Shown here one piece after another: positions 38,767-51,715 of a stretch of 63,336 nt of DNA (the first letter of the stretch is position 1; each line of letters opens with the position of its first letter). The notes below the pieces were generated by a model. The model searched no databases. It saw only the letters and a list, made by a program, of their open reading frames with translations, and had not been told where the DNA came from. A program made the position numbers and the translations under genes. Source of the DNA: Chloroflexota bacterium (GTDB lineage Bacteria; Chloroflexota; Limnocylindria; QHBO01); assembly GCA_039933775.1 (NCBI GenBank), contig JBDTNK010000003.1, forward strand, positions 1 through 63,336. The letters run 5' to 3'.

Positions 38767-39525
38767 TCAAAACTGGCGGCCCTGGGCGATCTGCCAGAGC
38801 GTGCGCAGGATGATCCGCACGTCGAGGCGGAATGAGCGGCGCTCGACGTAGTCGAGGTCGAGCTTCACGCCCTCGTCGAAGTTGAGTCGCCCCCAACCGA
38901 GCACTTGCCACAGCCCGGTCAGCCCCGGCGGCACGGAGAGCCGGCGCAGGTGCCACGGCTCGTAGAGGTCAACCTCGTACGGGATCGGCGGCCGGGGACC
39001 GACAAGGCTCATGTCGCCGCGCACGATGTTGAGCAGCTGCGGCAGCTCATCGAGGTGTGAGCGGCGCAGGAACCGTCCGACGTTCGTGACGCGCTCGTCG
39101 CCCTCGATGGGGACCCAGGCGCGATGCCGCATGCCGTCGGCGCGCTTGATGAGGCGGCTGATATGGCGCTGATGCCGGCCCTGGTCGGCGCTCATGTGCA
39201 TGGTGCGGAACTTGAAGCAGGCGAAGGGCCGGCCGCCCAGGCCCAGGCGCTCCTGCCGGAAGAGGATCGGCCCCGGTGAGTCCAGGCGCACCGCGGTCGC
39301 GATCCCGGCGAGCAGCGGGCTGAGCACGACCAGGCCGACCGAGCTCGCGGCGAGGTCCAGGGTCCGCTTCGCGATCCGATAGCCCAGCCTCGTGGACGCT
39401 TCGGGCACCTCGGCGCGCGTCGCCGGCGGCCGCGAGTCAGTCGTCGCGACGACGCCAACGCGCTGCGCGACGTCTGTCGTCTCTACGCTCACGGCGAGGT
39501 GCGGAAGATCCTTCGGCGGGTTCAT
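38767..39525 (-). CDS. Second priming sugar phosphotransferase
   Basis: KRTLDL, FKFRTM, DERVTNVGRFLRRSHLDELPQLLNI.RGDMSLVGPRP, PGLTGLWQV. GGAG SD before ATG 39525. Confidence 0.92.
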   Translation of the reverse strand: MNPPKDLPHLAVSVETTDVAQRVGVVATTDSRPPATRAEVPEASTRLGYRIAKRTLDLAASSVGLVVLSPLLAGIATAVRLDSPGPILFRQERLGLGGRPFACFKFRTMHMSADQGRHQRHISRLIKRADGMRHRAWVPIEGDERVTNVGRFLRRSHLDELPQLLNIVRGDMSLVGPRPPIPYEVDLYEPWHLRRLSVPPGLTGLWQVLGWGRLNFDEGVKLDLDYVERRSFRLDVRIILRTLWQIAQGRQF

Positions 39526-39548
39526 CTGCTCCGGTTCGGTGCGTGCGG

Positions 39549-39625
39549 TGGTCGGGGCGGCCGGATTCGAACCGGCGACTTCCTGCTCCCAAAGCAGGCG
39601 CGCTGCCAGGCTGCGCCACGCCCCG
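39549..39625 (-). tRNA. tRNA-Pro (anticodon TGG), CCA encoded
   Basis: CGGGGCGTGGCGCAGCCTGGCAGCGCGCCTGCTTTGGGAGCAGGAAGTCGCCGGTTCGAATCCGGCCGCCCCGACCA: 77 nt, acceptor stem CGGGGCG/CGCCCCG, TTCGAA T-loop. Confidence 0.97.
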
Positions 39626-39651
39626 ACCGAAATGAGTCCGGATCGGCTCGC

Positions 39652-39657
39652 ATCATA
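39652..39657 (-). promoter_or_regulatory. -10 TATGAT for the tRNA-Pro transcript
   Basis: Lies 26 nt upstream of the mature tRNA 5' end. Confidence 0.45.
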
Positions 39658-39852
39658 CCGATGTCGTGCCACCCGCTGCTCCGGGCGCGGAGCTCGTCCC
39701 CGGACGAGGAGGCGTCGAGCGGTCCAAATTCGCGCCGATGCTATCCTCCCTACCCGGCTCCGTCACGATCGAGCACGAATGTCCGGATTGATGCAGCTTT
39801 GCCGTCGATCCGTTTCCAGTATGGATGGCGCGAAAGCGGCCGGCGAGGAGCG

Positions 39853-40485
39853 ATGCCACAACCGACGCAGACCGATGACGCCGTCCTGGCCGTACAGATC
39901 GCCGCGGGTGATCGCGAGGCGCTCGGCGAGCTGTACGACCGGTATGTGTCTGTCGCGCTCGCAACCGCGCTGCGCGTGGTCTCAGATCGTCAACTCGCGG
40001 AGGACATCGTGCACGACGCCTTCGTGGCGGCATGGCAGAAGATCGGGCGCTATGACCCGGCGCGTGGCGCGCTGCGGGCGTGGCTGTTGACGATCGTCCG
40101 CAATCGGGCCATCGACCGCGTTCGATCCAGCCGCCCGTCGATGGACATTGACGCGGCCGATGCCCTCGCCCTGCTCACCAGCGGCCCGAACCCGACCTGG
40201 GACGCTGCCGTCGAACGCCTCTCCGCACGCGAGCTGCGGGCCGCGGTCGACAGCCTGCCGCCCGAGCAGCGCACCGCCGTCGAGCTCGCCTTTTTCGGCG
40301 GCCACACCTACCGCGAGATCGCGGACATGACCGGTGTCCCGCGCGGGACCGCGAACGGCCGGCTGCGGTTGGCGCTCGCGAAGCTGCGCAACCTGCTCAG
40401 CGTCGGCGACGCAGCGCCGCTCACCGAAGGCGGCAGCGGTCCTGGCATCGCATCCTCCGAAGTTGCGCACGGGCTCGACCGATGA
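39853..40485 (+). CDS. ECF RNA polymerase sigma factor (SigK-like)
   Basis: SD GAGGAG. GDREALGELYDRY, AEDIVHDAFVAAW, WLLTIVRNRAIDRVR, LPPEQRTAVELAFFGG.TYREIA, GTANGRLRLAL. Confidence 0.92.
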   Translation: MPQPTQTDDAVLAVQIAAGDREALGELYDRYVSVALATALRVVSDRQLAEDIVHDAFVAAWQKIGRYDPARGALRAWLLTIVRNRAIDRVRSSRPSMDIDAADALALLTSGPNPTWDAAVERLSARELRAAVDSLPPEQRTAVELAFFGGHTYREIADMTGVPRGTANGRLRLALAKLRNLLSVGDAAPLTEGGSGPGIASSEVAHGLDR

Positions 40486-41249
40486 ACTGCCGAGAGGTCG
40501 ATGAGTTCGGTGCGGCATTCGCGGCTGGTGCGCTCGACGAACGACAGCGGCGCGGAGCGCTCGCCCACCTTGCGACCTGCCGGCAGCCACACCCGGACGC
40601 TCGGATGGCACCCGCTCTCGCGACCGTCCTCGCGAGCTCGCTGGAGCCCGTGACGCCACCCCCCGCGCTGCGGCAACGGCTGATGGAGACAATCGAGGCG
40701 AGGCCGCAGGAGCATGCGGCCCAGCCGCGTCGGTCGGTACGCGACGCCGTTGCGCCTCTCTCGCCCGACATGAGTCCGCGACCATTTCTGGGCTGGCTGC
40801 CGCAATCGCTCGCTCGCGGCCTCGCCGTTGGCGGCGTCACTGCGGCGCTGGCGCTGGCGGTGGTCGGCGGCTCGCTGTATGCACAGCTTCGCGACCGCGA
40901 CGACGCGCTGCGGGCGCTCGCGACGACGATCGCCGCCGGGGATGCGGCGCTGCGCGTCAGCGGCGAGGCGGGCAGCGGCTATCTCGTGGACCGCCAGGGG
41001 ACAGGTGCGACGCTGATTCTGGCCGACGTGAAGGCCCTGCCAGCCGATCGGCTCTACGAGCTGTGGCTGATTCCGGAGCAAGGCGCACCGACGGCCGTCG
41101 GGACATTCACGCCGTCGGACGACGAGATCACGGTGGTGCCGGTCGAGGACGACCTCGACGGCTACTCCGGCTTCGCGATGACCGTCGAGGCCGAACGGGT
41201 CGACGCGCCGACGACCGACCCGGTGCTCGTGGCTCCGCTCGAGGGCTGA
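40482..41249 (+). CDS. Anti-sigma factor, RskA-like
   Basis: ATGA overlap with the sigma gene. Zinc-finger-like N-terminus, single TM, YELWLIP...P.AVG.F, FAMTVE..P.T.PVL. Confidence 0.88.
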   Translation: MNCREVDEFGAAFAAGALDERQRRGALAHLATCRQPHPDARMAPALATVLASSLEPVTPPPALRQRLMETIEARPQEHAAQPRRSVRDAVAPLSPDMSPRPFLGWLPQSLARGLAVGGVTAALALAVVGGSLYAQLRDRDDALRALATTIAAGDAALRVSGEAGSGYLVDRQGTGATLILADVKALPADRLYELWLIPEQGAPTAVGTFTPSDDEITVVPVEDDLDGYSGFAMTVEAERVDAPTTDPVLVAPLEG

Positions 41250-41257
41250 CACCACGA

Positions 41258-41287
41258 AGCGCCCGGAGCGGTGGGGCTCCGGGCGCT
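41258..41287 (+). terminator. Hairpin after the sigma/anti-sigma operon
   Basis: Perfect 12-bp stem AGCGCCCGGAGC / GCTCCGGGCGCT, 6-nt loop, 9 nt after the stop. No U tract. Confidence 0.6.
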
Positions 41288-41458
41288 CGTGATCGGTGCG
41301 GCGAACCGCGGCTCAGCGGTTCCGACGCCTCGCGAAGGCGAGGAGGCCGCCGAACGAAACGGCGGACGCCGAGGCGGCGATCAGGAGCCACGGAAGTGCC
41401 GGCCCCGAACCGGCATATCACTCGGTCTCACGGTCGAGCTGGCTTGCATAATCCGGCG

Positions 41459-42712
41459 GTGCTGCGGATCCTTCGGCAACCCGACTTCTCGAGGCTGTGG
41501 CTCGGCGGGCTGATCTCGATGATCGGCGACTGGATCCTGATCGTGGGCCTGCCGTTCGAGATCTACCGCCGCACCGGCTCCACGCTGGCCACCGGCGCCA
41601 TGGTGCTCGCCTATCTCATCCCCTCGATCACCCTCGGGTCGTTCGCCGGGGTCTTCGTGGACCGATGGGACCGTAAACGCCTCATGGTCGCGGTCAATGT
41701 CGTGCTCGCGTTGGCCGTGCTGCCGCTGCTGCTGATGGACACGCTCGGGATCTGGATCGCGTACCTGGTGCTCGTCATCTCGAGCAGCCTCGAGCAGCTC
41801 TTCTCCCCGGCAGAGACGGCGCTGCTGCCCAACCTGCTCGAACATCCCGATGACGACCTCGTGACGGCCAACGCGCTGAATGGCATGAACAACCACTTGG
41901 CGCGGCTCATCGGTCCGGCGGTGGGCGGGATCATCGTCGCGGTGGGCGGCATGACCGCGGTGGCGCTGATCGACGCGGTCTCGTTCATCATCAGCGCCGT
42001 GCTCATCGGGTCAATCCGTGCCACCCACACACGCGCCACGCCGGTGGCATCGCTCGAGCACGAGGCCATGACGGCCTGGACCCGGGTGGTGGCCGAGTGG
42101 CGCGAGGGCCTCCGGATCGTGCTCGGTCAGCCGGTGCTGCGGGCATTGCTCGTCTTCTTCGTCATCACTCGCATCGGCGAGGGATTGACCGCGACGCTGT
42201 TCGTGCCATGGGTGACCGATGCCCTGCACTCCGACTCGGCCGGCTACGGCGCGCTGCTCTCTACCCAGGCACTCGGGGGCCTCGCCGGGGCGGTGGTCAT
42301 CGGGCGCATGGGCGCGCGCTTGAACCCGCTGCGGCTGCTCGTCGTGGGGGCAATCGCGTTCGGGCTCATCGACCTGGCGCTGTTCACGTACCCGGTGCTC
42401 TACCCGTTCATCGGTCCGGCGCTGTTCGCGATGGTGATCGTGGGCGTCCCGGGCGCCGCCATGGTCGCGGGCTGGACAACGCTCGAGCAGACGCTGGCGG
42501 CCGACTCGCACCGCGGACGCGTGATCGCGGCGATCGGTGCCGTGGCCAGCCTGGGGTCGCTGGTCGGCGCGAGCGCCGCCGCCGTGCTGGGTGAGACGGT
42601 TCCGGTGATCCCGCTGCTCATCGTCCAGGGCAGCGGCTACGTCATCGGCGGCCTGGTCGTCGCCTGGATGACGCGCGTCGCGTCGGATGGGTCCTCGACG
42701 ACCACCGGATAG
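41459..42712 (+). CDS. MFS transporter (DHA3/H+ antiporter-like)
   Basis: GTG 41459 lies 6 nt after [37 protein letters not shown], about 12 TMs. Confidence 0.9.
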
Positions 42713-43122: not shown

Positions 43123-45279
43123 TCAGGCGCGACCGGCGGCCGCCTCGTCGGATCGACGACGACCGGCCAGCCGGATGAGGTCCTCGTGAAGCTCGAACCA
43201 CACCCCGTGATAGCTGTCGACGCGTGGCGACGCGACGAAGCGCTGGTCACCACCGCGGGCGAGCTCCAGCGCTCGCTCCAGCCGCGATGCGTACGTCGCG
43301 AATCGATGCAGAACGTCCGCCGTCGGCGAGAGCCATGCGGCGGTCTCCGCATGCAGGGCGGCGAGGTCGTCCAGGACCCCTGCGTCGTACGCCGCGTCGG
43401 CATGATCGTTGATGGCCTGCGCACCGGCCACCTCGCGCACCTGCCAGGCCGTGACGATCTGCTTCATGCGCGTATCGAATCGGTGGAAGGCTTCGAGCAG
43501 CGCAGCGCTGGCCTCGTCGCCGATCTGGGCTCGATCGGCGGCCATGAGATCGAGACCTCGCAGCTTGCCCTCCGCCGACAGCCGCAGCGACCCGTCCCTT
43601 GACTCGACCAGCGCCTCGGCCGACAGCGCCTCCACGACGCCCGCCAGGCCGTCCGGCGCGACGAGGCGCGACTCCGCGAGCTGCTCGGGCGTCGCCGCGC
43701 CCTTGATCAGGAGGCCGCGCAGCAGATCGTCTCGGGATGCCGTGCCTTCAAGCGGCAGAGCAGTGGGGCCCGCATCGGCGGGGGCGCTCGAATCGTCGGT
43801 GCGCTGCTCGACCCGCGGCTCGATCCCCAGCTCCTGCGCCCAGGCGAGCAGGATCGCCGCCTCCGGCGCCACCTCGTCGCTGCCCTCCAGCCGGCCGGCG
43901 AAGACCTCGCCGGTCGAGCCGTCGATCGTCAGCTCCTCGCCGGCCGCGATGACCGTGCCCTCGATCTCGACGCTGTCGACACCGGGCCGCACGCCGGCGG
44001 CGCCAACCACGGCGGGAATGCCCCAGCCGCGCGCCACGACGGCGGCATGGCTGGCCAGGCCGCCCCGCGCGGTGAGCACGCCGGCGGCGCGCGACATGCC
44101 GCGCACGTCGTCGGGCGATGTCTCGGATCGAACCAGGATGACCGACCGCCCGGATTCAGCTACCGTCTCGGCAGCGTCGGACGAGGTGGCGATCACGCCC
44201 GTTGCCACGCCCGGCGAGGCGGGCAGGCCGCGCGCCAGCGGGGCGGGGACGCCGAGCGCCCGAACGAAGATGCGCGGTGGATGGGCCAGGTGCGCCGCGA
44301 CGCGCTCGACCGCTTCGGCACGCGAGCAGGCCATGCTCGGATCATCGGCCATGTCGATCGCGATCCGCAGCGCGGCGCGCGGGCTGCGCTTCCCGGCACG
44401 CACCTGGAGCAGCCACAGCCGGCCCTCCTCGATCGTGAACTCGATGTCGCACAGGTCGGCCACGTGCTGCTCGAGCGTCGCCGCGTGACGGTGGAGCTCG
44501 GCGGCGACATCCGGCAGGCGCTGCTCGAGGACCGCGATCGGCTGCGGCTGCTGACCGCCGGCCACGACGTCCTCGCCCTGCGCATCGAACATCACGTCGC
44601 CGTACGGGGTCGGCTCACCGGTGGATGGGTTGCGCGTGAAGAGCACCCCCGTGCCGGAGTTCGCGCCACGGTTGCCGAAGACCATGGCCTGCACCGTCAC
44701 CGCAGTGCCCAGGTCGTCGCTAATCTGCTCGCGCCGCCGGTAGGCACGCGCCCGCTCGCTGTTCCACGAGCGGAAGACCGCCTCGATCGCCGCGCGCAGC
44801 TGCTGCCAGGGATCGTCGGGCAGCGCGTCGGTGCCGATCACCGTCCGATATCCCTCGCGCAGGCGCCGCAGACAGTCGTCGGCGAATGCCGCGTCGCCGG
44901 TGGCCGCGGCGAGACCGGCGACCGATGCCTGGCTCAGGCCCAGGTCCAGGATCGTGTCCATCATGCCGGGCATGGAGACCGCGGCCCCCGACCTGACACT
45001 CACGAGCAACGGATCCTCGGGGTCGCCGAACCGATGTCCGACGCGCTCGCCGAGCCGCTCGATATGGTCGCGCAGCTCGTCGTCGAGCCCATCGGGCCAT
45101 TGGCCTTCCAGGAAGTGCGTGCTGGCCACGGTGGTGATGGTGAAGCCGGGCGGCACCGGCAGGCGAAGCTCGTTGGCCATGACGGCCAGGTTCGCCCCTT
45201 TGCCGCCCAGGAGCCGGGTCAGCTCTGCGTGCGAAAGCTCCGGCGGTGCGTCGAAGTCGTAGACGTAGCGGTTCGACAT
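43123..45279 (-). CDS. PPDK-like protein: ATP-grasp + phospho-His domain, no PEP/pyruvate TIM barrel, fused non-PPDK C-terminal domain
   Basis: LLGGKGANL, VPPGFTITT, VSVRSGAAVSMPGMMDT, VQAMVFGN, DIEFT, RGGLASHAAVVARGWG. About 200-aa tail ending DSYHGVWFELHEDL. Confidence 0.9.
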   Translation of the reverse strand: MSNRYVYDFDAPPELSHAELTRLLGGKGANLAVMANELRLPVPPGFTITTVASTHFLEGQWPDGLDDELRDHIERLGERVGHRFGDPEDPLLVSVRSGAAVSMPGMMDTILDLGLSQASVAGLAAATGDAAFADDCLRRLREGYRTVIGTDALPDDPWQQLRAAIEAVFRSWNSERARAYRRREQISDDLGTAVTVQAMVFGNRGANSGTGVLFTRNPSTGEPTPYGDVMFDAQGEDVVAGGQQPQPIAVLEQRLPDVAAELHRHAATLEQHVADLCDIEFTIEEGRLWLLQVRAGKRSPRAALRIAIDMADDPSMACSRAEAVERVAAHLAHPPRIFVRALGVPAPLARGLPASPGVATGVIATSSDAAETVAESGRSVILVRSETSPDDVRGMSRAAGVLTARGGLASHAAVVARGWGIPAVVGAAGVRPGVDSVEIEGTVIAAGEELTIDGSTGEVFAGRLEGSDEVAPEAAILLAWAQELGIEPRVEQRTDDSSAPADAGPTALPLEGTASRDDLLRGLLIKGAATPEQLAESRLVAPDGLAGVVEALSAEALVESRDGSLRLSAEGKLRGLDLMAADRAQIGDEASAALLEAFHRFDTRMKQIVTAWQVREVAGAQAINDHADAAYDAGVLDDLAALHAETAAWLSPTADVLHRFATYASRLERALELARGGDQRFVASPRVDSYHGVWFELHEDLIRLAGRRRSDEAAAGRA

Positions 45280-45344
45280 GTGCGTCTCAGATCGAAGGTT
45301 CAGCGGGTTTCCCGCCATCGGCCGATGCGGCTATGCTCCAGTAT

Positions 45345-45358
45345 GATCGATGATCGAT
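45345..45358. promoter_or_regulatory. Tandem GATCGAT x2 overlapping -10 TATGAT in the divergent dikinase promoter (candidate operator)
   Basis: Contains TCGATGATCGAT. An 11/12 copy (TCGATAATCGAT, minus strand) lies at 54309-54320. Confidence 0.45.
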
Positions 45359-45370
45359 ACTTGGGAGGTC

Positions 45371-47170
45371 ATGGCATTGCCTGTCGCTGCGGATGAGCCG
45401 ATCCTGGGCAAATTCCTCGGGAGCGGCGACTTTCCGATCGAATGGGCGTCCGACCAGGAACGGCAGCTGTTCTGGGTCTTCGACGACCTGCACTGCCCGC
45501 ACCCACTGAGCCCGATGTTCTACGAGATCGGCGGCTGGTGGCTGACCTGCGATCACATGTTCCGCCGCTTCGGGACGCCGTTTGCGTGCGACTGGATCAC
45601 CAAAAACGTCAACGGCTACCTCTACACCGCCGCCGTGCCGGCCGACCCTGCCCGGCAGGTCGACGCGATGGAGTACGGCGCCCGCTACGGCGCCCGCGTC
45701 CCGCTCGACCCCGAATACGGCGAGCGCATGGGTGCGTACCTCGACGCGGTGCTGCCGGTCTACGGCCAGCACTTCGCGGAGTGGTGGCGGGATCGGCTCG
45801 TCCCCGAGATGCAGGCCAACTTCGCCTTCCTGGAGCAGCGCCTCGAGCGCCAGGACGAGCTGTCGCTCATGGATCTGGCCGTCCTGTTCGAGGATGCGAT
45901 CGACATCCACGATCGGCACTGGAAGATCCACTGGATGCTGAACTTCTCGCAGCTCTCGGCGACGCTCAACCTGCGCGCGGTCATGGAGAAGACCCGCGGC
46001 ACGGTCGACGATGCGCTGCTCGGCCGGCTGCAGAACTCGGCGAACGACCGCAACTGGGACTCGATCCGGGCGCTCTGGGAGATGAAGGAGGAGGCGAAGG
46101 CCGACGGCGACCTCGCGACGGCCTTCAGCCACGACACCGCGGCCGAGATCATCGCCGCGCTCAAGCGGACCGAGCGCGGGGATCGGTTCATTGGCGAGCG
46201 GATCAAGCCGTACCAGCAGGAGTTCGGCTGGCACGCGGTCTGGAGCCACGAGTTCGTCTTCCCCACGGTCTACGAGAAGATGGAGCAGGTCGTGGAGCTG
46301 GTCCGCGGCTATGTCGAGAGTGACTACGACTATCCCGCCACGATCGGTGCGCTGAAAACCGATATCGAGGCCGCCTCACGGGAGATCCTGGATGGCCTCG
46401 ACGGCGAGGCGCTCGAGGAGATGCGCGCGGCGAACGAGATCAACCTGCAGATGGCACCGCTCACGCCGGACCACCACTTCTACATCGACCAGGGAGCGAA
46501 CGCACATCTGCGGCTGGTGCTCATCGCCATCGGCCGCAAGCTGGTGGCGGGCAAGGTGCTGGACCAGGCCGACGACGTGCTGTTCCTGCGCTACAACGAG
46601 CTGCGCGCCGTCATGGGCGATCCCGACGCCATCGAGGCGCGCTCCGTCGTCGCGCAACGCCGCGAAGCGCGCGAGGCGGCGTATGCCTTCCGGCCACCGG
46701 CATGGATCGGGACGGCCACCGAGAGCCAGCTCGCCTTCCCGTACCTGGTGAACTGGGGATTTCCCGAAAAGTTCTATCGCAAGGACGCGGTCGCGGGCGT
46801 GGTGGAGGGCATCGGTGGCTCCCCCGGCGTGGTCGAGGGGATCGCACGAGTCGTCCTGCGCGAGGATGAGTTCGATGCCGTCCGCGCCGGCGACATCCTG
46901 GTCTGCCACATGACGAATCCAGCTTGGGTCGTGCTCTTCACGAAGATCGCAGGCCTCGTCACGAACGCCGGCGGCCTGACCGGACATCCCGCGGTGCTCA
47001 GCCGCGAATTCGGCATCCCCGCCGTGGTCGGCACGCAGGACGGGACGCAGCGCATCAGCACCGGCGATCGCGTGCGCGTGGACGGGGCGACCGGCAGGGT
47101 CGAGGTCCTCGAGGCTGCGGGGAAGCCCCGTAACGACCTGTTCACGGTTCAGCCGCGGGCCGAGGCATGA
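45371..47170 (+). CDS. PEP-utilising-enzyme family: acceptor-binding domain + C-terminal phospho-His swivel domain, no ATP-grasp (phenylphosphate synthase A / RPH-like)
   Basis: SD GGGAGG before ATG 45371. FWVFDDLHCPHPLSP, NVNGYLY, DHHFYIDQ, GGSPGVVEGIARVV, LVCHMTNPAW, AGGLTGHPAVLSREFGIPAVVG. Confidence 0.88.
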   Translation: MALPVAADEPILGKFLGSGDFPIEWASDQERQLFWVFDDLHCPHPLSPMFYEIGGWWLTCDHMFRRFGTPFACDWITKNVNGYLYTAAVPADPARQVDAMEYGARYGARVPLDPEYGERMGAYLDAVLPVYGQHFAEWWRDRLVPEMQANFAFLEQRLERQDELSLMDLAVLFEDAIDIHDRHWKIHWMLNFSQLSATLNLRAVMEKTRGTVDDALLGRLQNSANDRNWDSIRALWEMKEEAKADGDLATAFSHDTAAEIIAALKRTERGDRFIGERIKPYQQEFGWHAVWSHEFVFPTVYEKMEQVVELVRGYVESDYDYPATIGALKTDIEAASREILDGLDGEALEEMRAANEINLQMAPLTPDHHFYIDQGANAHLRLVLIAIGRKLVAGKVLDQADDVLFLRYNELRAVMGDPDAIEARSVVAQRREAREAAYAFRPPAWIGTATESQLAFPYLVNWGFPEKFYRKDAVAGVVEGIGGSPGVVEGIARVVLREDEFDAVRAGDILVCHMTNPAWVVLFTKIAGLVTNAGGLTGHPAVLSREFGIPAVVGTQDGTQRISTGDRVRVDGATGRVEVLEAAGKPRNDLFTVQPRAEA

Positions 47171-47457
47171 CGTACGTGGTCACCGCCACGTGGCGTGCCC
47201 GCGAAGGCGAAGCCGAGCGCGTTCGCGAGATCCTCGAGGTGCTCACGCCTCTCTGCCGCGCCGAGCCCGGCTGCCGCCAATACCAGGCCCACCAATCGCT
47301 CGACGACCCGCGGCTCTTCTTCCTCTACGAGCAGTACGACGACGAGGCCGCGTTCCAGGCGCACGCGCAGACCGACCACGTCGAACGCCATGTCCGCGGC
47401 GATGCCGTGCCGCGGCTGGAGCTGCGCGAGCGCGCGATCTTCACGACGTTCGAGTGA
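47167..47457 (+). CDS. Antibiotic-biosynthesis-monooxygenase (ABM) family protein
   Basis: CRAEPGCRQY, FFLYEQYDDEAAFQAHAQTDH. ATGA overlap. Confidence 0.88.
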   Translation: MTYVVTATWRAREGEAERVREILEVLTPLCRAEPGCRQYQAHQSLDDPRLFFLYEQYDDEAAFQAHAQTDHVERHVRGDAVPRLELRERAIFTTFE

Positions 47458-48128
47458 TGCCTGACCTCAAGCAGCCCGCGGCCCCGCTCCCACGCAGCGT
47501 CCTTAGCGCCCAGGTCAAGGACAGGATGCTGCAGTGGGTCCTGCAGGGAGAGCTGGCACCGGGAGCGCGCATCATCGAGACGCGCATCGCACGACAGCTC
47601 GGGACGAGCCAGGCGCCGGTGCGCGAGGCGCTGCGCGACCTCGCGACGCTGGGATTGGTCGAGATGCACCCGTTCCGCGGGGCGCGCGTCCGCGAGCCCG
47701 CGCCCGACGAGCTCATCGAGGCTATGGAGCTGCGCGGCGAGCTCGAGGCGATCGCCGCGCGAAGCGCGGTGCTACGCATCGACGACGCCGGCCTGGCACG
47801 GATGCATGAGCTGCTCGACGAGATGCGCGCGAGCGCCGCCCGTGGTGACGCCCATGCGCAGGCGCTCCGCAACTCCGAGTTCCACTCCTGCATCATCAGC
47901 GCCTCCGGCAATCGGACCCTCCAGCGCCTGTGGTCGATGCTCGAGCCGTTCGCGCGCACCTACCTGACCGCCACGCTGCCGGGGGCCGACCTGCACTGGC
48001 TGGCCGAGCGCCACGTGGCCATCCTCGACGCCTTCACGGCCCGTGACCCGGAGCGCGCCGCCGAGACGATGCGGCTGCACGCCCGCGAGGCGCAGCGGCA
48101 GGTGCTCGAGCCGGACGAGACGGCCTAG
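47457..48128 (+). CDS. GntR-family regulator (FCD/FadR C-terminal domain)
   Basis: GELAPGARIIETRIARQLGTSQAPVREAL, NSEFH, GNRTL, H.AILDA...RD...A..MR.H. TGATG overlap. Confidence 0.92.
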   Translation: MPDLKQPAAPLPRSVLSAQVKDRMLQWVLQGELAPGARIIETRIARQLGTSQAPVREALRDLATLGLVEMHPFRGARVREPAPDELIEAMELRGELEAIAARSAVLRIDDAGLARMHELLDEMRASAARGDAHAQALRNSEFHSCIISASGNRTLQRLWSMLEPFARTYLTATLPGADLHWLAERHVAILDAFTARDPERAAETMRLHAREAQRQVLEPDETA

Positions 48129-48136
48129 ACGCACCG

Positions 48137-49000
48137 ATGTTCGACTACGCGCGACCGAAAAGCCTGAACGAGACCTTCGCCCTGCTGCGGGAGATGCCCG
48201 ACGCCAGGCTCCTCAGCGGGGGAACCGACCTGCTGGTGAACCTGCGCGGGGGCCGGGCGGCGACGCCCCTGGTCATCGATCTCAAGCGGGTCGCCGATCT
48301 CGAGGCGGGCATCACCCAGCGCGAGGGCTGGTTGCGCGTCGGCGCCGGCACGGTCATGACCGATCTCGCCGCAGACGACCACGTTCGCGACCGCTTCCCG
48401 TCCCTGGTGGGAGCCGCTCTGGTGGTTGGCTCGGTCCAGATCCGCAATCGCGCCACGCTGGCGGGCAACGTGTGCAACGCCTCTCCCGCCGCCGACACGG
48501 CTCCCCCGCTGTTGATCCACGACGCCGTCGTCGAGCTTGCCGGCAGCGCGGGCCTGCGGCGCGTCGAGCTGAGCCAGTTCTTCCTGGGACCCGGCCGTAC
48601 CGCGCTCCAGCCCGGCGAGCTGGTTGCCGCGATCGAGCTGCCGATTCCCGGCGGGCCGCTCGGGACGGCGTTCGCGCGCATGACGCGCCGCCGCGGCGTC
48701 GACCTCGCCACGGTCAGCCTGTGCTGCTCCGTCTCGGCCACCGGCGTCACCAGATTCGCCTTTGGCGCCGTCGGCCCGCGGCCCTTCGGGGTGACCGATG
48801 ACACCGGCATCCTGGCCGACCCCGCCGGCGACCCGGCGCTGCAGGACGAGGCGCTGCGCCGCCTGACCGGCCACGCCAGCCCGCTCTCGAACGTGCGCGC
48901 CAGTCGCGAGTACCGCGAGGCGATGCTGCTGGTCCTCGGGCGTCGGGCGCTCGAAGCGGCCAGGCAACGGCTGCGGGAGGCGCACCTTGCCGGGACGTGA
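48137..49000 (+). CDS. Molybdenum hydroxylase FAD-binding subunit (CoxM/CutM-like)
   Basis: LSGGTDLL, VGSVQIRNRATLAGNVCNASPAAD, GELVAAI. Confidence 0.92.
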   Translation: MFDYARPKSLNETFALLREMPDARLLSGGTDLLVNLRGGRAATPLVIDLKRVADLEAGITQREGWLRVGAGTVMTDLAADDHVRDRFPSLVGAALVVGSVQIRNRATLAGNVCNASPAADTAPPLLIHDAVVELAGSAGLRRVELSQFFLGPGRTALQPGELVAAIELPIPGGPLGTAFARMTRRRGVDLATVSLCCSVSATGVTRFAFGAVGPRPFGVTDDTGILADPAGDPALQDEALRRLTGHASPLSNVRASREYREAMLLVLGRRALEAARQRLREAHLAGT

Positions 49001-49475
49001 GCTGCGTGTCGGGCTCGGCGTCAACGGCGAGCAACGCAACATCGAGGTGTCGGTGGAGCAGACGCTGCTCGAGGTGCTGCGCGACCAGGTCGGACTCACC
49101 GGAACCAAGGAATGTTGCGCCGTCGGCGAATGCGGCGCCTGCACCGTCATGCTCGACGGCCGCGCGGTTAACTCATGCCTGGTGCTGGCAGTCGAGGCCG
49201 ATGGCGCGCAGGTCACGACGATCGAGGGGCTGACAGCGCGTGACGGCCTGAGCCCGCTGCAGGATGCGTTCGTGAGGCATGGTGCCGTCCAATGCGGATT
49301 CTGCACGCCGGGAATGGTCGTCGCCGCGCACGCGCTGCTGACCACCACGCTGCGGCCGACGATGGCCGAGATTCGCGAGGGCCTGTCGGGGAATCTCTGC
49401 CGCTGCGGCTGCTACAACCAGATCTGCGACGCGGTGGCCGAGGTCGCCGGCCTCGTGGCCGCGCCCGCGCGATGA
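48987..49475 (+). CDS. Molybdenum hydroxylase 2x[2Fe-2S] subunit (CoxS-like)
   Basis: TGTKECCAVGECGACTV, VNSCL, QCGFCTPG, NLCRCGCY. Confidence 0.95.
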   Translation: MPGRELRVGLGVNGEQRNIEVSVEQTLLEVLRDQVGLTGTKECCAVGECGACTVMLDGRAVNSCLVLAVEADGAQVTTIEGLTARDGLSPLQDAFVRHGAVQCGFCTPGMVVAAHALLTTTLRPTMAEIREGLSGNLCRCGCYNQICDAVAEVAGLVAAPAR

Positions 49476-51715
49476 TCGGCAGTTCGGAGCGGCGCATCGG
49501 CGGCGCTGATCGCGCCAGCGGGGCGCAGCGCTACGTGGCCGACGTCCGGCTGGGCGGCGCGCTGCACGTCGCGCTGGTGCATCTCGATTGCGCACGCGCT
49601 CGCATCGGTCCCATCGATGCGACCGCCGCGCTGCTGGCGCCGGGCGTCGTCGCGGTGGTCACCGCACAGGATCTCCCGCAGCCCATGCCCCGCTTCGGGC
49701 CCACGTACGCGGACCGGCCGCTGCTGGCGGTGGATGAGACAAAGTTCCACGGCGAGCCGGTCGCCGCGGTGTTGGCCGAGACGCACGAAGCCGCCCGCGA
49801 GGCCGCGGCGCTGGTGCGGGTCGAGCACGAGCAGCTGCCCGCGGTGGTGAGCATCGGGCAGGCGCTCGACCCTGGCGCGCCGCTCGTCCGCGATCCGGCG
49901 CTGCGCGCTGCCGACGACCCGCTGCGGAACACGAACAGGCTGTCCGAGTGGCACTTCGGCTGGGGTGACGTGGATCGCGCTTCCGCCGATACGGTGATCG
50001 AGCACGTGTACGGCGCCGCATCGACGACGCATTTCGCGATCGAGCCGCACGGCTTCATGGCCGCGCCCGACGGTGACGGCGTCGCCATCTGGAGCTCGAT
50101 CCAGCATCCCTATGTCCTGCAGCGGCTGGTGGCGGCGACCATCGGCCTGCCGGTCGCGAAGGTGCGCGTCTTCGCGCCGGACCCGGGCGGCGGCTTCGGC
50201 GGCAAGCAACATGCCAAGTACGAGCCGCTCCTCGCCGTCCTGGCGCTGCGCATTGGCCGTCCGTTGCGCCTGGTGCTGACCCTGGAGGAGACGTTTCAAT
50301 CGGTCCGCTCGCCCACCTTCGAGATCGCGATGCGCACCGGGTTCCGCGATGACGGCACGATCACCTTCCAGGACATCGTCGTGGACGGCATGCTCGGCGC
50401 GTACGCGGACATCGGCTACCGGGTGGTCAGCAAGGCCGCGTACCTGGCCTGTGGCCCGTACCGCGTGCCGGACGCGCGCATCGAGGTCCGAGCGCTGCTC
50501 TCCCACACGCCACCGGCCACCGCCCTGCGCGGCTTCGGCAGCCCGCAGATGGCCTGGGCCTTCGAGTCGCAGATGGACGCGGCGGCGGCGCAGCTTGGCC
50601 TGGACCGGGTCGCGATCCGGCTCGGCAACCTTGCCCGACGGGGCGAGGCCATCGTGCGCGGCGCCGGGGACACCCCCGTTGACGGCGACTGGGCGCAGAC
50701 GGTGCAGCGGGCCGTCGCCTGGATCGGCTGGGACACGCCGCTCCCCGAGGGCCATGGTCGCGGGCTGGCGCTGGGCATCAAGTCGTCGGCGACGACGGGC
50801 GCCTCGTACGCCATCGTGCGGCTGCTCCACGACGGCAGCGCGACGGTGATGGCCGGCACCTCGGACATGGGACAGGGCGCTCGCACCGTGATCGCGCAGA
50901 TCGCCGCACAGGAGCTCGGGATCGGCACGGAGCGCGTCAACGTCGTCATGGGCGACACCGGCGCGGCGCCGTACGACATGCAGACGTCGGCCAGCCGCTC
51001 GACCGTCTTCATGGGCACCGCGGTGCTGAACGCCTGCAGCGAGATCAGGAAGAAGCTGCGGCAAATGGCCGCCGAGACATACCGCATGCCCGAAGCGACG
51101 CTCGAGCTCGACGGTGGCAGTGTGCGGCTGCCCGATGGCGCTCGTTCGTTTGTCGAGATCATGGCCGATACCTTCGGCCCGATGCTGGGCGAGGTGATCG
51201 GCATCGGGGAGCGGCGCGGCGCCCACATCCCGGGCCATCCGCTCGGCGGACACGCGGCCTTCTACGAGTTCAGCTGCACCGCATCGGAGGTATCGGTCGA
51301 TATCGAGACCGGCGAGGTCCAGCTCCTGCGCCACGTGACCGTCTCCGACGTCGGCAAGGCGCTCAACCCGACGCACGTCGCGATGCAGGATGAGGGCGCG
51401 GCGATGATGGGCATCGGCCAGACGCTGATGGAGCACCTGCTCTTCGACCCGCAGAGCGGCCGGATCGAGAACCTCGGGGCGCTCGACTATCGGATCCTGA
51501 CCACCAAGGACGTGCCGCTCGAGATGGCGTCGCTGACCGTTGAAAACGAGGATGGGCCCGGTCCGTACGGCTCGAAGGGGACCGGCGAGAGCGGCCTCCT
51601 CTCCACCGCACCCGCGATCGCATCTGCGATTCGCGACGCGACCGGCGTGGCGATCCGCGACCTTCCGATCACCCCCGAGCGCATCTGGGCGGCGTTGCAG
51701 TCAGCTCGTCGGTAG
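49472..51715 (+). CDS. Xanthine dehydrogenase-family molybdopterin-binding subunit (substrate unknown)
   Basis: IEPHG, GGGFGGK, ALRGFGSPQ, DMGQG, TSASRST, KGTGE (catalytic Glu). Confidence 0.93.
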   Translation: MIGSSERRIGGADRASGAQRYVADVRLGGALHVALVHLDCARARIGPIDATAALLAPGVVAVVTAQDLPQPMPRFGPTYADRPLLAVDETKFHGEPVAAVLAETHEAAREAAALVRVEHEQLPAVVSIGQALDPGAPLVRDPALRAADDPLRNTNRLSEWHFGWGDVDRASADTVIEHVYGAASTTHFAIEPHGFMAAPDGDGVAIWSSIQHPYVLQRLVAATIGLPVAKVRVFAPDPGGGFGGKQHAKYEPLLAVLALRIGRPLRLVLTLEETFQSVRSPTFEIAMRTGFRDDGTITFQDIVVDGMLGAYADIGYRVVSKAAYLACGPYRVPDARIEVRALLSHTPPATALRGFGSPQMAWAFESQMDAAAAQLGLDRVAIRLGNLARRGEAIVRGAGDTPVDGDWAQTVQRAVAWIGWDTPLPEGHGRGLALGIKSSATTGASYAIVRLLHDGSATVMAGTSDMGQGARTVIAQIAAQELGIGTERVNVVMGDTGAAPYDMQTSASRSTVFMGTAVLNACSEIRKKLRQMAAETYRMPEATLELDGGSVRLPDGARSFVEIMADTFGPMLGEVIGIGERRGAHIPGHPLGGHAAFYEFSCTASEVSVDIETGEVQLLRHVTVSDVGKALNPTHVAMQDEGAAMMGIGQTLMEHLLFDPQSGRIENLGALDYRILTTKDVPLEMASLTVENEDGPGPYGSKGTGESGLLSTAPAIASAIRDATGVAIRDLPITPERIWAALQSARR

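Follow-up and report, generated by a model that had tools for sequence, protein, structure and literature searches.

The closest described counterpart of the gene examined here is a pair of neighboring genes in Mycobacterium tuberculosis, rv1127c and rv1126c. Rv1127c, formerly PpdK, was renamed VadK in 2026, and VadK was described as a virulence-linked histidine kinase derived from pyruvate, phosphate dikinase (PPDK) and as a possible drug target (Pascoe et al., EMBO Rep 2026, PMC13400623). M. tuberculosis VadK, the one protein for which this has been demonstrated, autophosphorylates on His422 in an ATP- and Mg-dependent manner. VadK and Rv1126c co-purify; co-expression of Rv1126c makes VadK soluble, separation of the two takes a wash with 2 M NaCl, and after removal of Rv1126c, VadK continues to autophosphorylate on His422 (PMC13400623). 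Here we report on a minus-strand gene in a 63,336-nucleotide stretch of DNA from a Chloroflexota bacterium of the class Limnocylindria (contig JBDTNK010000003.1; the whole stretch is hereafter called the window), in which a VadK-type truncated PPDK and an Rv1126c-type domain are encoded as one polypeptide. Almost certainly, this fusion gene is a single-chain version of the mycobacterial VadK and Rv1126c pair, both in the identity of its parts and in their obligate partnership. The building blocks and their pairing are already known from the work on VadK (PMC13400623). A literature search found no paper on the fusion, on the fold of Rv1126c, or on a link to proteins of the type encoded next to the fusion gene, an ATP-grasp-less phosphohistidine protein that we call P1, though fused proteins abound in databases.

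Relation of the fusion gene to VadK and Rv1126c

The M. tuberculosis genes were located with the published native rv1127c qPCR primer (PMC13400623). An exact-match scan of the genome contigs with this primer returned nothing, and a search of the wider genome collection returned a single exact match, in a mycobacterial chromosome of 4,411,532 bp. The primer-bearing open reading frame (ORF) encodes 492 amino acids (aa), and its GGAASH histidine is position 422 of the annotated 490-aa protein, in agreement with the published phosphorylation site. The next same-strand ORF downstream encodes 201 aa and shares an ATGA overlap with rv1127c; judged by gene order, it is Rv1126c.

The tail of the fusion protein (residues 527 to 731, 205 aa, nucleotides 43123 to 43740 including the stop codon) aligns with Rv1126c over the full length of both, with 66 of 200 residues identical (33%; tail residues 6 to 205 against 6 to 200; BLASTP E value, 2e-30), and with a Mycolicibacterium homologue at 38% identity (E value, 4e-42). 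The N-terminal part matches Rv1127c at 202 of 449 positions (45%; E value, 1e-99), with His424 of the GGLASH motif aligned to VadK His422 of GGAASH. The sequence-only reading of the window had likened the tail to Rv1126c and had placed Rv1126c beside a similarly truncated Rv1127c; both points were correct. The motifs quoted in that reading (LLIKG, LSAEG, FHRFDTRMKQIVTAWQ, NDHADAAYDAGVL, and DSYHGVWFELHEDL) all lie within the tail, which also carries the signature motifs of the Rv1126c family, W-Q, N-x-H-x-D-x-x-Y-D, and D-S-Y-H-x-V-W-F-E-L-H-E, in two family alignments (A1 and A2) and in the alignment with Rv1126c. No curated model exists for the Rv1126c-type family; we assign the tail to it on the full-length homology, the signature motifs, and the fusion with a VadK-type short PPDK.

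The kinase part has the composition expected of a VadK-type protein, namely an ATP-grasp domain, a swivel domain with the catalytic histidine, no barrel, and an above-cut-off score with NCBIfam model NF004531. Pfam placed both PPDK_N and PEP-utilizers within residues 1 to 470. The PEP-utilizers_C barrel (PF02896) had no match anywhere in the fusion protein, and no Pfam or NCBIfam family matched its last 205 residues. NF004531, which was built on the short mycobacterial 'PpdK', scored 500.2 bits against a cut-off of 456; this score alone does not discriminate, because the full-length PPDK of the same genome passes the cut-off too. The canonical PPDK model TIGR01828 reached 524.8 bits against a cut-off of 843.45, with the profile covered to position 526 of 865. 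Crystal structures of PPDK (PDB 1DIK, 1KBL, and 5JVJ type) were matched with an E value of 1e-120, and in most entries the match ends at query residue 497. An identity as canonical PPDK was rejected on the TIGR01828 score and the missing PEP/pyruvate TIM barrel. Outside the window, the same genome encodes a full-length canonical PPDK (G000:C5:41128-42792; 936-aa frame, GGATSH), and the fusion is therefore not its sole PPDK-family enzyme.

The minus-strand ORF spans 43123 to 45318 and encodes 731 aa when counted from its first ATG, at 45318. The ATG at 45279 is the likely start; it gives a protein of 718 aa, as in the gene-caller version (P0121), and agrees with homologues that begin with xxxxYVYDFD. 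In 731-aa numbering, GGLASH occupies residues 419 to 424, and the codon for His424 lies at 44047 to 44049. The swivel domain is joined to the tail by a flexible linker of about 20 to 25 residues, and this stretch is not conserved among homologues (alignment A3). The closest database homologues are annotated as Limnocylindria (Chloroflexota). The same architecture is found in more than 1785 database proteins of approximately 710 to 730 aa (candidates were restricted to full-length sizes), and we therefore rejected an assembly or frameshift artifact. Coordinates are collected in Table 1.

Table 1. Features of the fusion gene and of the genes next to it (window positions)
Feature	Position	Strand	Basis
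Fusion gene, VadK-type truncated PPDK plus Rv1126c-type domain	43123..45279	-	ORF list, gene-caller, homologue consensus
PPDK-type ATP-grasp (nucleotide-binding) domain	44254..45279	-	Pfam PF01326 (PPDK_N), E 2.7e-46
Phosphohistidine swivel domain, motif GGLASH	43864..44253	-	Pfam PF00391 (PEP-utilizers), E 1.1e-22, residues 392-470
Disordered low-complexity linker (EQRTDDSSAPADAGPTALP), kinase part to tail	43753..43809	-	Predicted local distance difference test (pLDDT) <50, residues 491-509 of the 718-aa model
Acidic winged helix-turn-helix (wHTH) subdomain of tail	43573..43734	-	AlphaFold2 (AF2) secondary structure, DtxR/IdeR/MntR profile matches
All-helical tail subdomain with family-wide invariant polar residues	43126..43572	-	Alignments A1 and A2, AF2 pLDDT 95
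P1, 599-aa partner candidate: swivel domain GGLTGH (His539), Rph-like region, no ATP-grasp	45371..47170	+	Pfam PF00391
ABM monooxygenase-like gene	47167-47457	+	Pfam
GntR/FCD regulator gene	47460-48128	+	Pfam
Three-subunit molybdenum (Mo) hydroxylase, xanthine-dehydrogenase family	48137-49000, 48987-49475, 49292-51715	+	Pfam

The sequence-only reading had further pointed out that the regulatory Thr of PPDK is replaced by Ala in GGLASH, and had proposed that the enzyme would escape control by PDRP. The Ala is real and typical of the family: among 61 fused homologues, 54 have it at this position, as does M. tuberculosis VadK. The escape is moot, as no PDRP (PF03618) was detected in the window's 87%-complete genome and the Thr is kept by many actinobacterial VadK-type proteins. 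The substitution therefore says little about regulation here.

Companionship of the Rv1126c-type module with VadK-type kinases

A phmmer search with the tail against 1.84 billion representative proteins returned 1396 representative clusters at an E value of 1e-3 or below, 837 of them at 1e-10 or below. The fused proteins are mostly annotated as 'pyruvate, phosphate dikinase', and their named sources are Limnocylindria, other Chloroflexota, and Dormibacteraceae. Within the window's phylum, the module was found in 5 of 201 genomes, all of the window's class and all in fused form, with one copy in the window's own genome. A split form exists in a close relative (L006), in which a 496-aa gene for PPDK_N and PEP-utilizers overlaps by 4 bp (ATGA) with the gene for a 210-aa stand-alone homologue, 53% identical to the tail encoded in the window.

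In the genome collection, tail relatives are encoded at 594 loci. Neighborhoods of actinobacterial tail genes were counted at the best 80 of these (Mycobacterium, Nocardia, Nocardioides, Streptomyces, and similar genera), and a VadK-type gene was adjacent at 69 of the 80, directly upstream on the same strand at 55 and directly downstream at 14. Co-occurrence was measured in an unbiased sample of 101 Mycobacterium species genomes. A short VadK-type gene was present in 51 of them, and all 51 also encoded the tail, adjacent to it in 49 and fused with it in one. Full-length PPDK (frames of 908 to 942 aa) was found in six genomes, none of which carried the tail gene, and the tail gene stood without a VadK-type gene in one genome of the 101. 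The association between the two genes in this sample is highly significant (Fisher P value, 3e-28).

We also built a tree of 99 tail domains, on which the fused or split state changes at least 17 times, with at least 6 of the changes forced by well-supported branches; because the states were assigned from gene calls on metagenome contigs, a few labels may be wrong. Rv1126c groups on this tree with the protein of M. szulgai, to which it is 70% identical. Collectively, these genomic comparisons show the tail module to be an obligate companion of VadK-type kinases, always encoded with them, usually translationally coupled, and often fused. The sequence-only reading had treated the fusion as Rosetta-stone evidence of such a partnership, an argument that proved strong, given thousands of fused proteins, split pairs with 4-bp overlaps, co-occurrence, and recurrent fusion and fission. 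As the physical partnership was already implied experimentally in 2026 (PMC13400623), the fusion corroborates the link between VadK and Rv1126c rather than discovers it.

Several further arrangements were seen. One Mycobacterium genome has the VadK-type and tail matches in a single 720-aa open frame, a fused form within the genus (G037:C37:56607-58163), and another has a partial VadK-type match next to a tail match with an in-frame TGA, possibly a decaying pair (G049:C13:115127-116295). Three actinobacterial loci (L009, L012, and L029) encode tail paralogues with no VadK-type gene within 6 kb; their neighbors are SDR, enoyl-CoA hydratase, family III CoA-transferase, acyl-CoA dehydrogenase, and TetR genes, and one of these metagenome-assembled genomes also has a normal VadK and tail pair at another locus (L057). 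A 448-aa protein on a 1.5-kb contig (P0249) consists of a Transketolase_N fragment followed by an Rv1126c-type module; it was seen on this one short metagenome contig and could be chimeric or frameshifted.

Fold and possible roles of the tail

An AlphaFold2 model of the tail, computed from a 47-sequence alignment, was predicted with high confidence (pLDDT, 95.1; predicted template-modeling score [pTM], 0.90). Residues 3 to 54 form a wHTH (helices 3 to 13, 18 to 24, and 29 to 41 and a hairpin at 45 to 54), which is followed by helices 56 to 73 and 75 to 100, a second hairpin at 101 to 110, and helices 116 to 141, 146 to 162, and 177 to 191. The winged-helix-like start anticipated by the sequence-only reading is thus borne out by the model and by matches of the family profile to DtxR/IdeR/MntR wHTH profiles (E values, 4e-4 to 4e-3; tail positions 5 to 71 only). 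The same is true of its proposal that the barrel has been replaced by a fused domain, since PF02896 is unmatched and the model beyond residue 485 consists of a linker, a wHTH, and helices. A degenerate PEP-utilizer barrel was rejected because the modeled tail is all helical apart from two short hairpins. In Foldseek, no PDB entry matched the tail model at an E value of 1e-3 or below. The weak matches were to wHTH regulators, headed by MntR and including DtxR/IdeR and MarR, and to the wHTH dimerization domains of O-methyltransferases, with global TM-scores of approximately 0.3 and root-mean-square deviations (rmsd) of approximately 12 Å. With such values, and with profile similarity confined to residues 5 to 71, the helical domain of the tail is not the DtxR/MntR dimerization domain. 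A Pfam scan of 39 tail-family members at E values of 1 or below turned up wHTH families below threshold, a lone hemerythrin match (E value, 0.049), and no other family.

The helical part of the tail is rich in conserved polar and aromatic residues. In tail numbering, those invariant in alignments A1 and A2 include K93, W99, Q100, N111, H113, D115, Y118, and D119, as well as S176, Y177, H178, W181, F182, E183, H185, and E186. They are identical in Rv1126c; about 18 invariant polar or aromatic positions are kept at 33% overall identity. As VadK stripped of Rv1126c still autophosphorylates, the tail is not needed for charging of the histidine and would act afterwards or as a regulator.

The gene neighborhood suggests a candidate for what lies downstream of the phosphohistidine. 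The P1 gene is divergent from the fusion gene at a distance of about 90 bp, and a ribosome binding site (GGGAGG) precedes its ATG at 45371. P1 gives PRK08296-like and Rph/PigC-like NCBIfam matches, all below cut-off, and its residues 388 to 588 match rifampin phosphotransferase structures in their C-terminal portion (E value, 1e-26). Three relatives on long contigs (L093, L094, and L095) have the same fusion, P1, and downstream gene set, and in the split pair of L006 Mo hydroxylase genes lie directly upstream. A 1256-aa protein found on two contigs (P0277, L097:7001-10771) carries a P1-like part (Rph_4th and swivel His), a VadK-type part, and the tail in one chain. Another operon (L096) encodes, in order, a P1-like protein, a fusion of a HAD-family hydrolase with the tail (P0359, L096:4201-5517), and a VadK-type protein, and a Mycolicibacterium operon (L008) has the order P1, DUF7065, tail, and VadK. 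At one further locus (L056), the tail gene directly adjoins a gene for a 684-aa P1-like protein, with no VadK-type gene within 6 kb.

Other features of these neighborhoods are recorded here for completeness. Two tandem ATCGAT palindromes (GATCGATGATCGATA) at 45344 to 45358, just upstream of the P1 ribosome binding site, may form an operator; a search for a longer operator-like inverted repeat between the two divergent genes found none. The ABM gene of the window directly follows that of P1, with an ATGA overlap at 47170, and L093 to L095 have an extra transaldolase/FSA-family gene between the P1-like and ABM genes. The cluster around P0277 contains Rieske oxygenase, DUF7064/7065, aldehyde dehydrogenase, SDR, and P450 genes. 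Upstream of the fusion gene, positions 39499 to 42712 of the window encode an ECF sigma factor and an anti-sigma factor, recognized by eye from the translations, and an MFS transporter confirmed by Pfam.

The tail occupies the place of the PPDK barrel, carries a conserved polar cluster, and is found repeatedly alongside proteins of phosphoryl transfer (P1 and a HAD hydrolase), and for these reasons we favor an acceptor-side or docking role. By analogy with VadK His422, ATP would charge His424 of the swivel domain. The tail would then serve as a docking station on the acceptor side, the role played by the barrel in PPDK, and its hand-over site would consist of clustered invariant residues (His, Asp, Glu, Tyr, Lys, and Arg). 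The phosphoryl group may next move to the co-encoded P1, which, on the analogy of PpsAB, CreHI, AcvAB, and the orf9/orf10 products of Ensifer, could phosphorylate a small hydroxylated substrate tied to the neighboring Mo hydroxylase. We put the chances at about even that the tail is an acceptor-side or docking module in the phosphotransfer of a multi-part, ATP-driven dikinase, the chemistry being what we infer, and at somewhat below even that the relay runs to the neighboring P1 and a small-molecule substrate.

A number of points weigh against this proposal. In the full-length AlphaFold model (718 aa), the individual domains are confident (pLDDT, 88.9), and the pTM of 0.65 and the disordered linker mean that no docked arrangement of tail and kinase is predicted with confidence. 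That phosphate arrives at the tail, at P1, or at a small molecule is likewise what we infer. The fusion has a swivel His of its own, whereas PpsB, CreI, and AcvB of the classical two-protein dikinases lack one, so that a His-to-His relay is an added assumption. P1 is likened to PpsA and CreH by architecture and gene pairing rather than by sequence comparison. No homologue of the P1 N-terminal domain was found in M. tuberculosis, and a P1-like gene lies within 6 kb at only about one-third of the actinobacterial loci (best 80 of 594). Finally, the model put forward for VadK in print has it regulate methylcitrate-cycle enzymes through protein-protein binding rather than phosphorylate a small molecule (PMC13400623).

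Three other roles for the tail were weighed against acceptor-side docking. It could be a purely structural subunit, contributing solubility, dimerization, or a scaffold, and taking no part in phosphotransfer. Winged helices are often dimerization modules, as in the O-methyltransferase domains among the weak Foldseek matches. The flexible linker and the moderate pTM of the full-length model fit such a role as well, as do the gain in VadK solubility on co-expression of Rv1126c and the autophosphorylation of VadK without it (PMC13400623). However, about 18 invariant polar residues, three histidines among them, shared by Chloroflexota and M. tuberculosis proteins with an overall identity of 33%, would be unexpected in a scaffold, and the tail is also fused to a HAD phosphohydrolase and adjoins a P1-type gene where no VadK-type gene is near. 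We therefore consider a purely structural role unlikely.

Also improbable is a regulatory role in which the tail, as a remote descendant of the DtxR/MntR metalloregulators, senses a ligand or metal and gates the kinase allosterically instead of receiving phosphate. The wHTH profile matches, the position of MntR at the head of the Foldseek list with alignments that extend past the wHTH, and the conserved His, Asp, and Glu residues, which could bind metal, are in line with a sensor, and the related AcvAB and phenylphosphate synthases are stimulated by Mn2+ (bioRxiv 10.1101/2022.04.28.489975). Set against these are the confinement of the sequence similarity to residues 5 to 71, the poor global superposition, and the result of the Pfam scan, in which the lone hemerythrin match was the only metal-binding family. 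The third role, a DNA-binding wHTH that would make the fusion a one-component, phosphorylation-controlled transcription factor at the divergent promoter region, is very improbable: the wHTH fold is present and the gene faces its partner operon across about 90 bp, but the helix that would recognize DNA is acidic and shows little conservation (mean net charge, -2.5; pI 4.3 to 4.6; two alignments), which argues against DNA binding, no operator-like inverted repeat was found between the divergent genes, the cluster has its own GntR/FCD regulator, and by RNA-seq the methylcitrate-cycle genes of M. tuberculosis are not transcriptionally regulated by VadK (PMC13400623).

A broader form of the acceptor-side proposal, which we regard as possible but doubtful, is that the Rv1126c-type module is a new phosphotransfer domain, either a His acceptor or relay or a catalytic hand-over site formed by its invariant His, Asp, and Glu residues, and that VadK, Rv1126c, and P1 together make up an ancient dikinase of catabolic clusters for hydroxylated aromatics or heterocycles, passing phosphate from ATP to His, perhaps to a second His, and on to the substrate. 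The M. tuberculosis pair would then be a relic that lacks the substrate-carrying partner and was co-opted for regulation of the methylcitrate cycle.

Comparison with known systems

Natural fusions, co-occurrence, and repeated fusion and fission make Rv1126c effectively the third domain of the kinase, and biochemical and structural studies of VadK should therefore include it. For structure determination, the environmental fusion proteins supply kinase and partner as a 1:1 complex from the outset. The spread of the system in catabolic clusters of soil Chloroflexota and Actinomycetota qualifies the published view that VadK originated in pathogenic mycobacteria and their relatives, and its recurrent association with the system makes P1 a specific candidate for the protein that ancestrally accepted the phosphate.

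The fusion protein and M. tuberculosis VadK with Rv1126c share the same two building blocks (45% and 33% identity), the His in GGxASH, and the replacement of the regulatory Thr by Ala. They differ in that there is one polypeptide here and two ATGA-overlapping genes there, and in context, with P1 and a Mo hydroxylase beside the fusion gene and prpR and prpDC beside the M. tuberculosis pair. With canonical PPDK (TIGR01828; 1DIK, 1KBL, and 5JVJ), the fusion has homologous nucleotide-binding and swivel domains (E value as given above) and presumably the step from ATP to phosphohistidine in common; unlike it, the fusion has neither the PEP/pyruvate TIM barrel nor the regulatory Thr.

In the split dikinases PpsAB(C), CreHI, and AcvAB, an ATP-binding PPDK_N protein acts together with a second protein of about 600 aa, which bears the phosphohistidine and binds the substrate, and in phenylphosphate synthase a third, accessory protein, PpsC, stimulates the reaction (bioRxiv 10.1101/2022.04.28.489975). 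In the 3hpd cluster of Ensifer adhaerens (orf9/orf10), the Mo hydroxylase acting on 3-hydroxypyridine depends genetically on two genes, one for a PPDK-like protein and one for a 'PEP-utilizing mobile subunit' (bioRxiv 10.1101/2020.01.08.898148). The window likewise has an ATP-side gene, a gene for a phosphohistidine protein of about 600 aa, and Mo hydroxylase genes side by side, a likeness of architecture. It differs from the split dikinases in that its ATP-side protein is of PPDK lineage, with its own swivel His and an Rv1126c-type module. PpsC is a CBS-domain protein and is not known to be related to the tail.

Rifampin phosphotransferase (RPH; 5FBS and 5HV1) provides a last point of comparison. 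The matching segment of P1 (residues 388 to 588) corresponds to the end of the RPH substrate-binding domain and its swivel His domain, and the triple fusion P0277 has the three kinds of module found in RPH, namely an ATP-grasp, a substrate-binding region, and a swivel His. RPH itself differs in being a single chain ordered as ATP-grasp, substrate domain, and swivel, with neither a second swivel nor an Rv1126c-type module.

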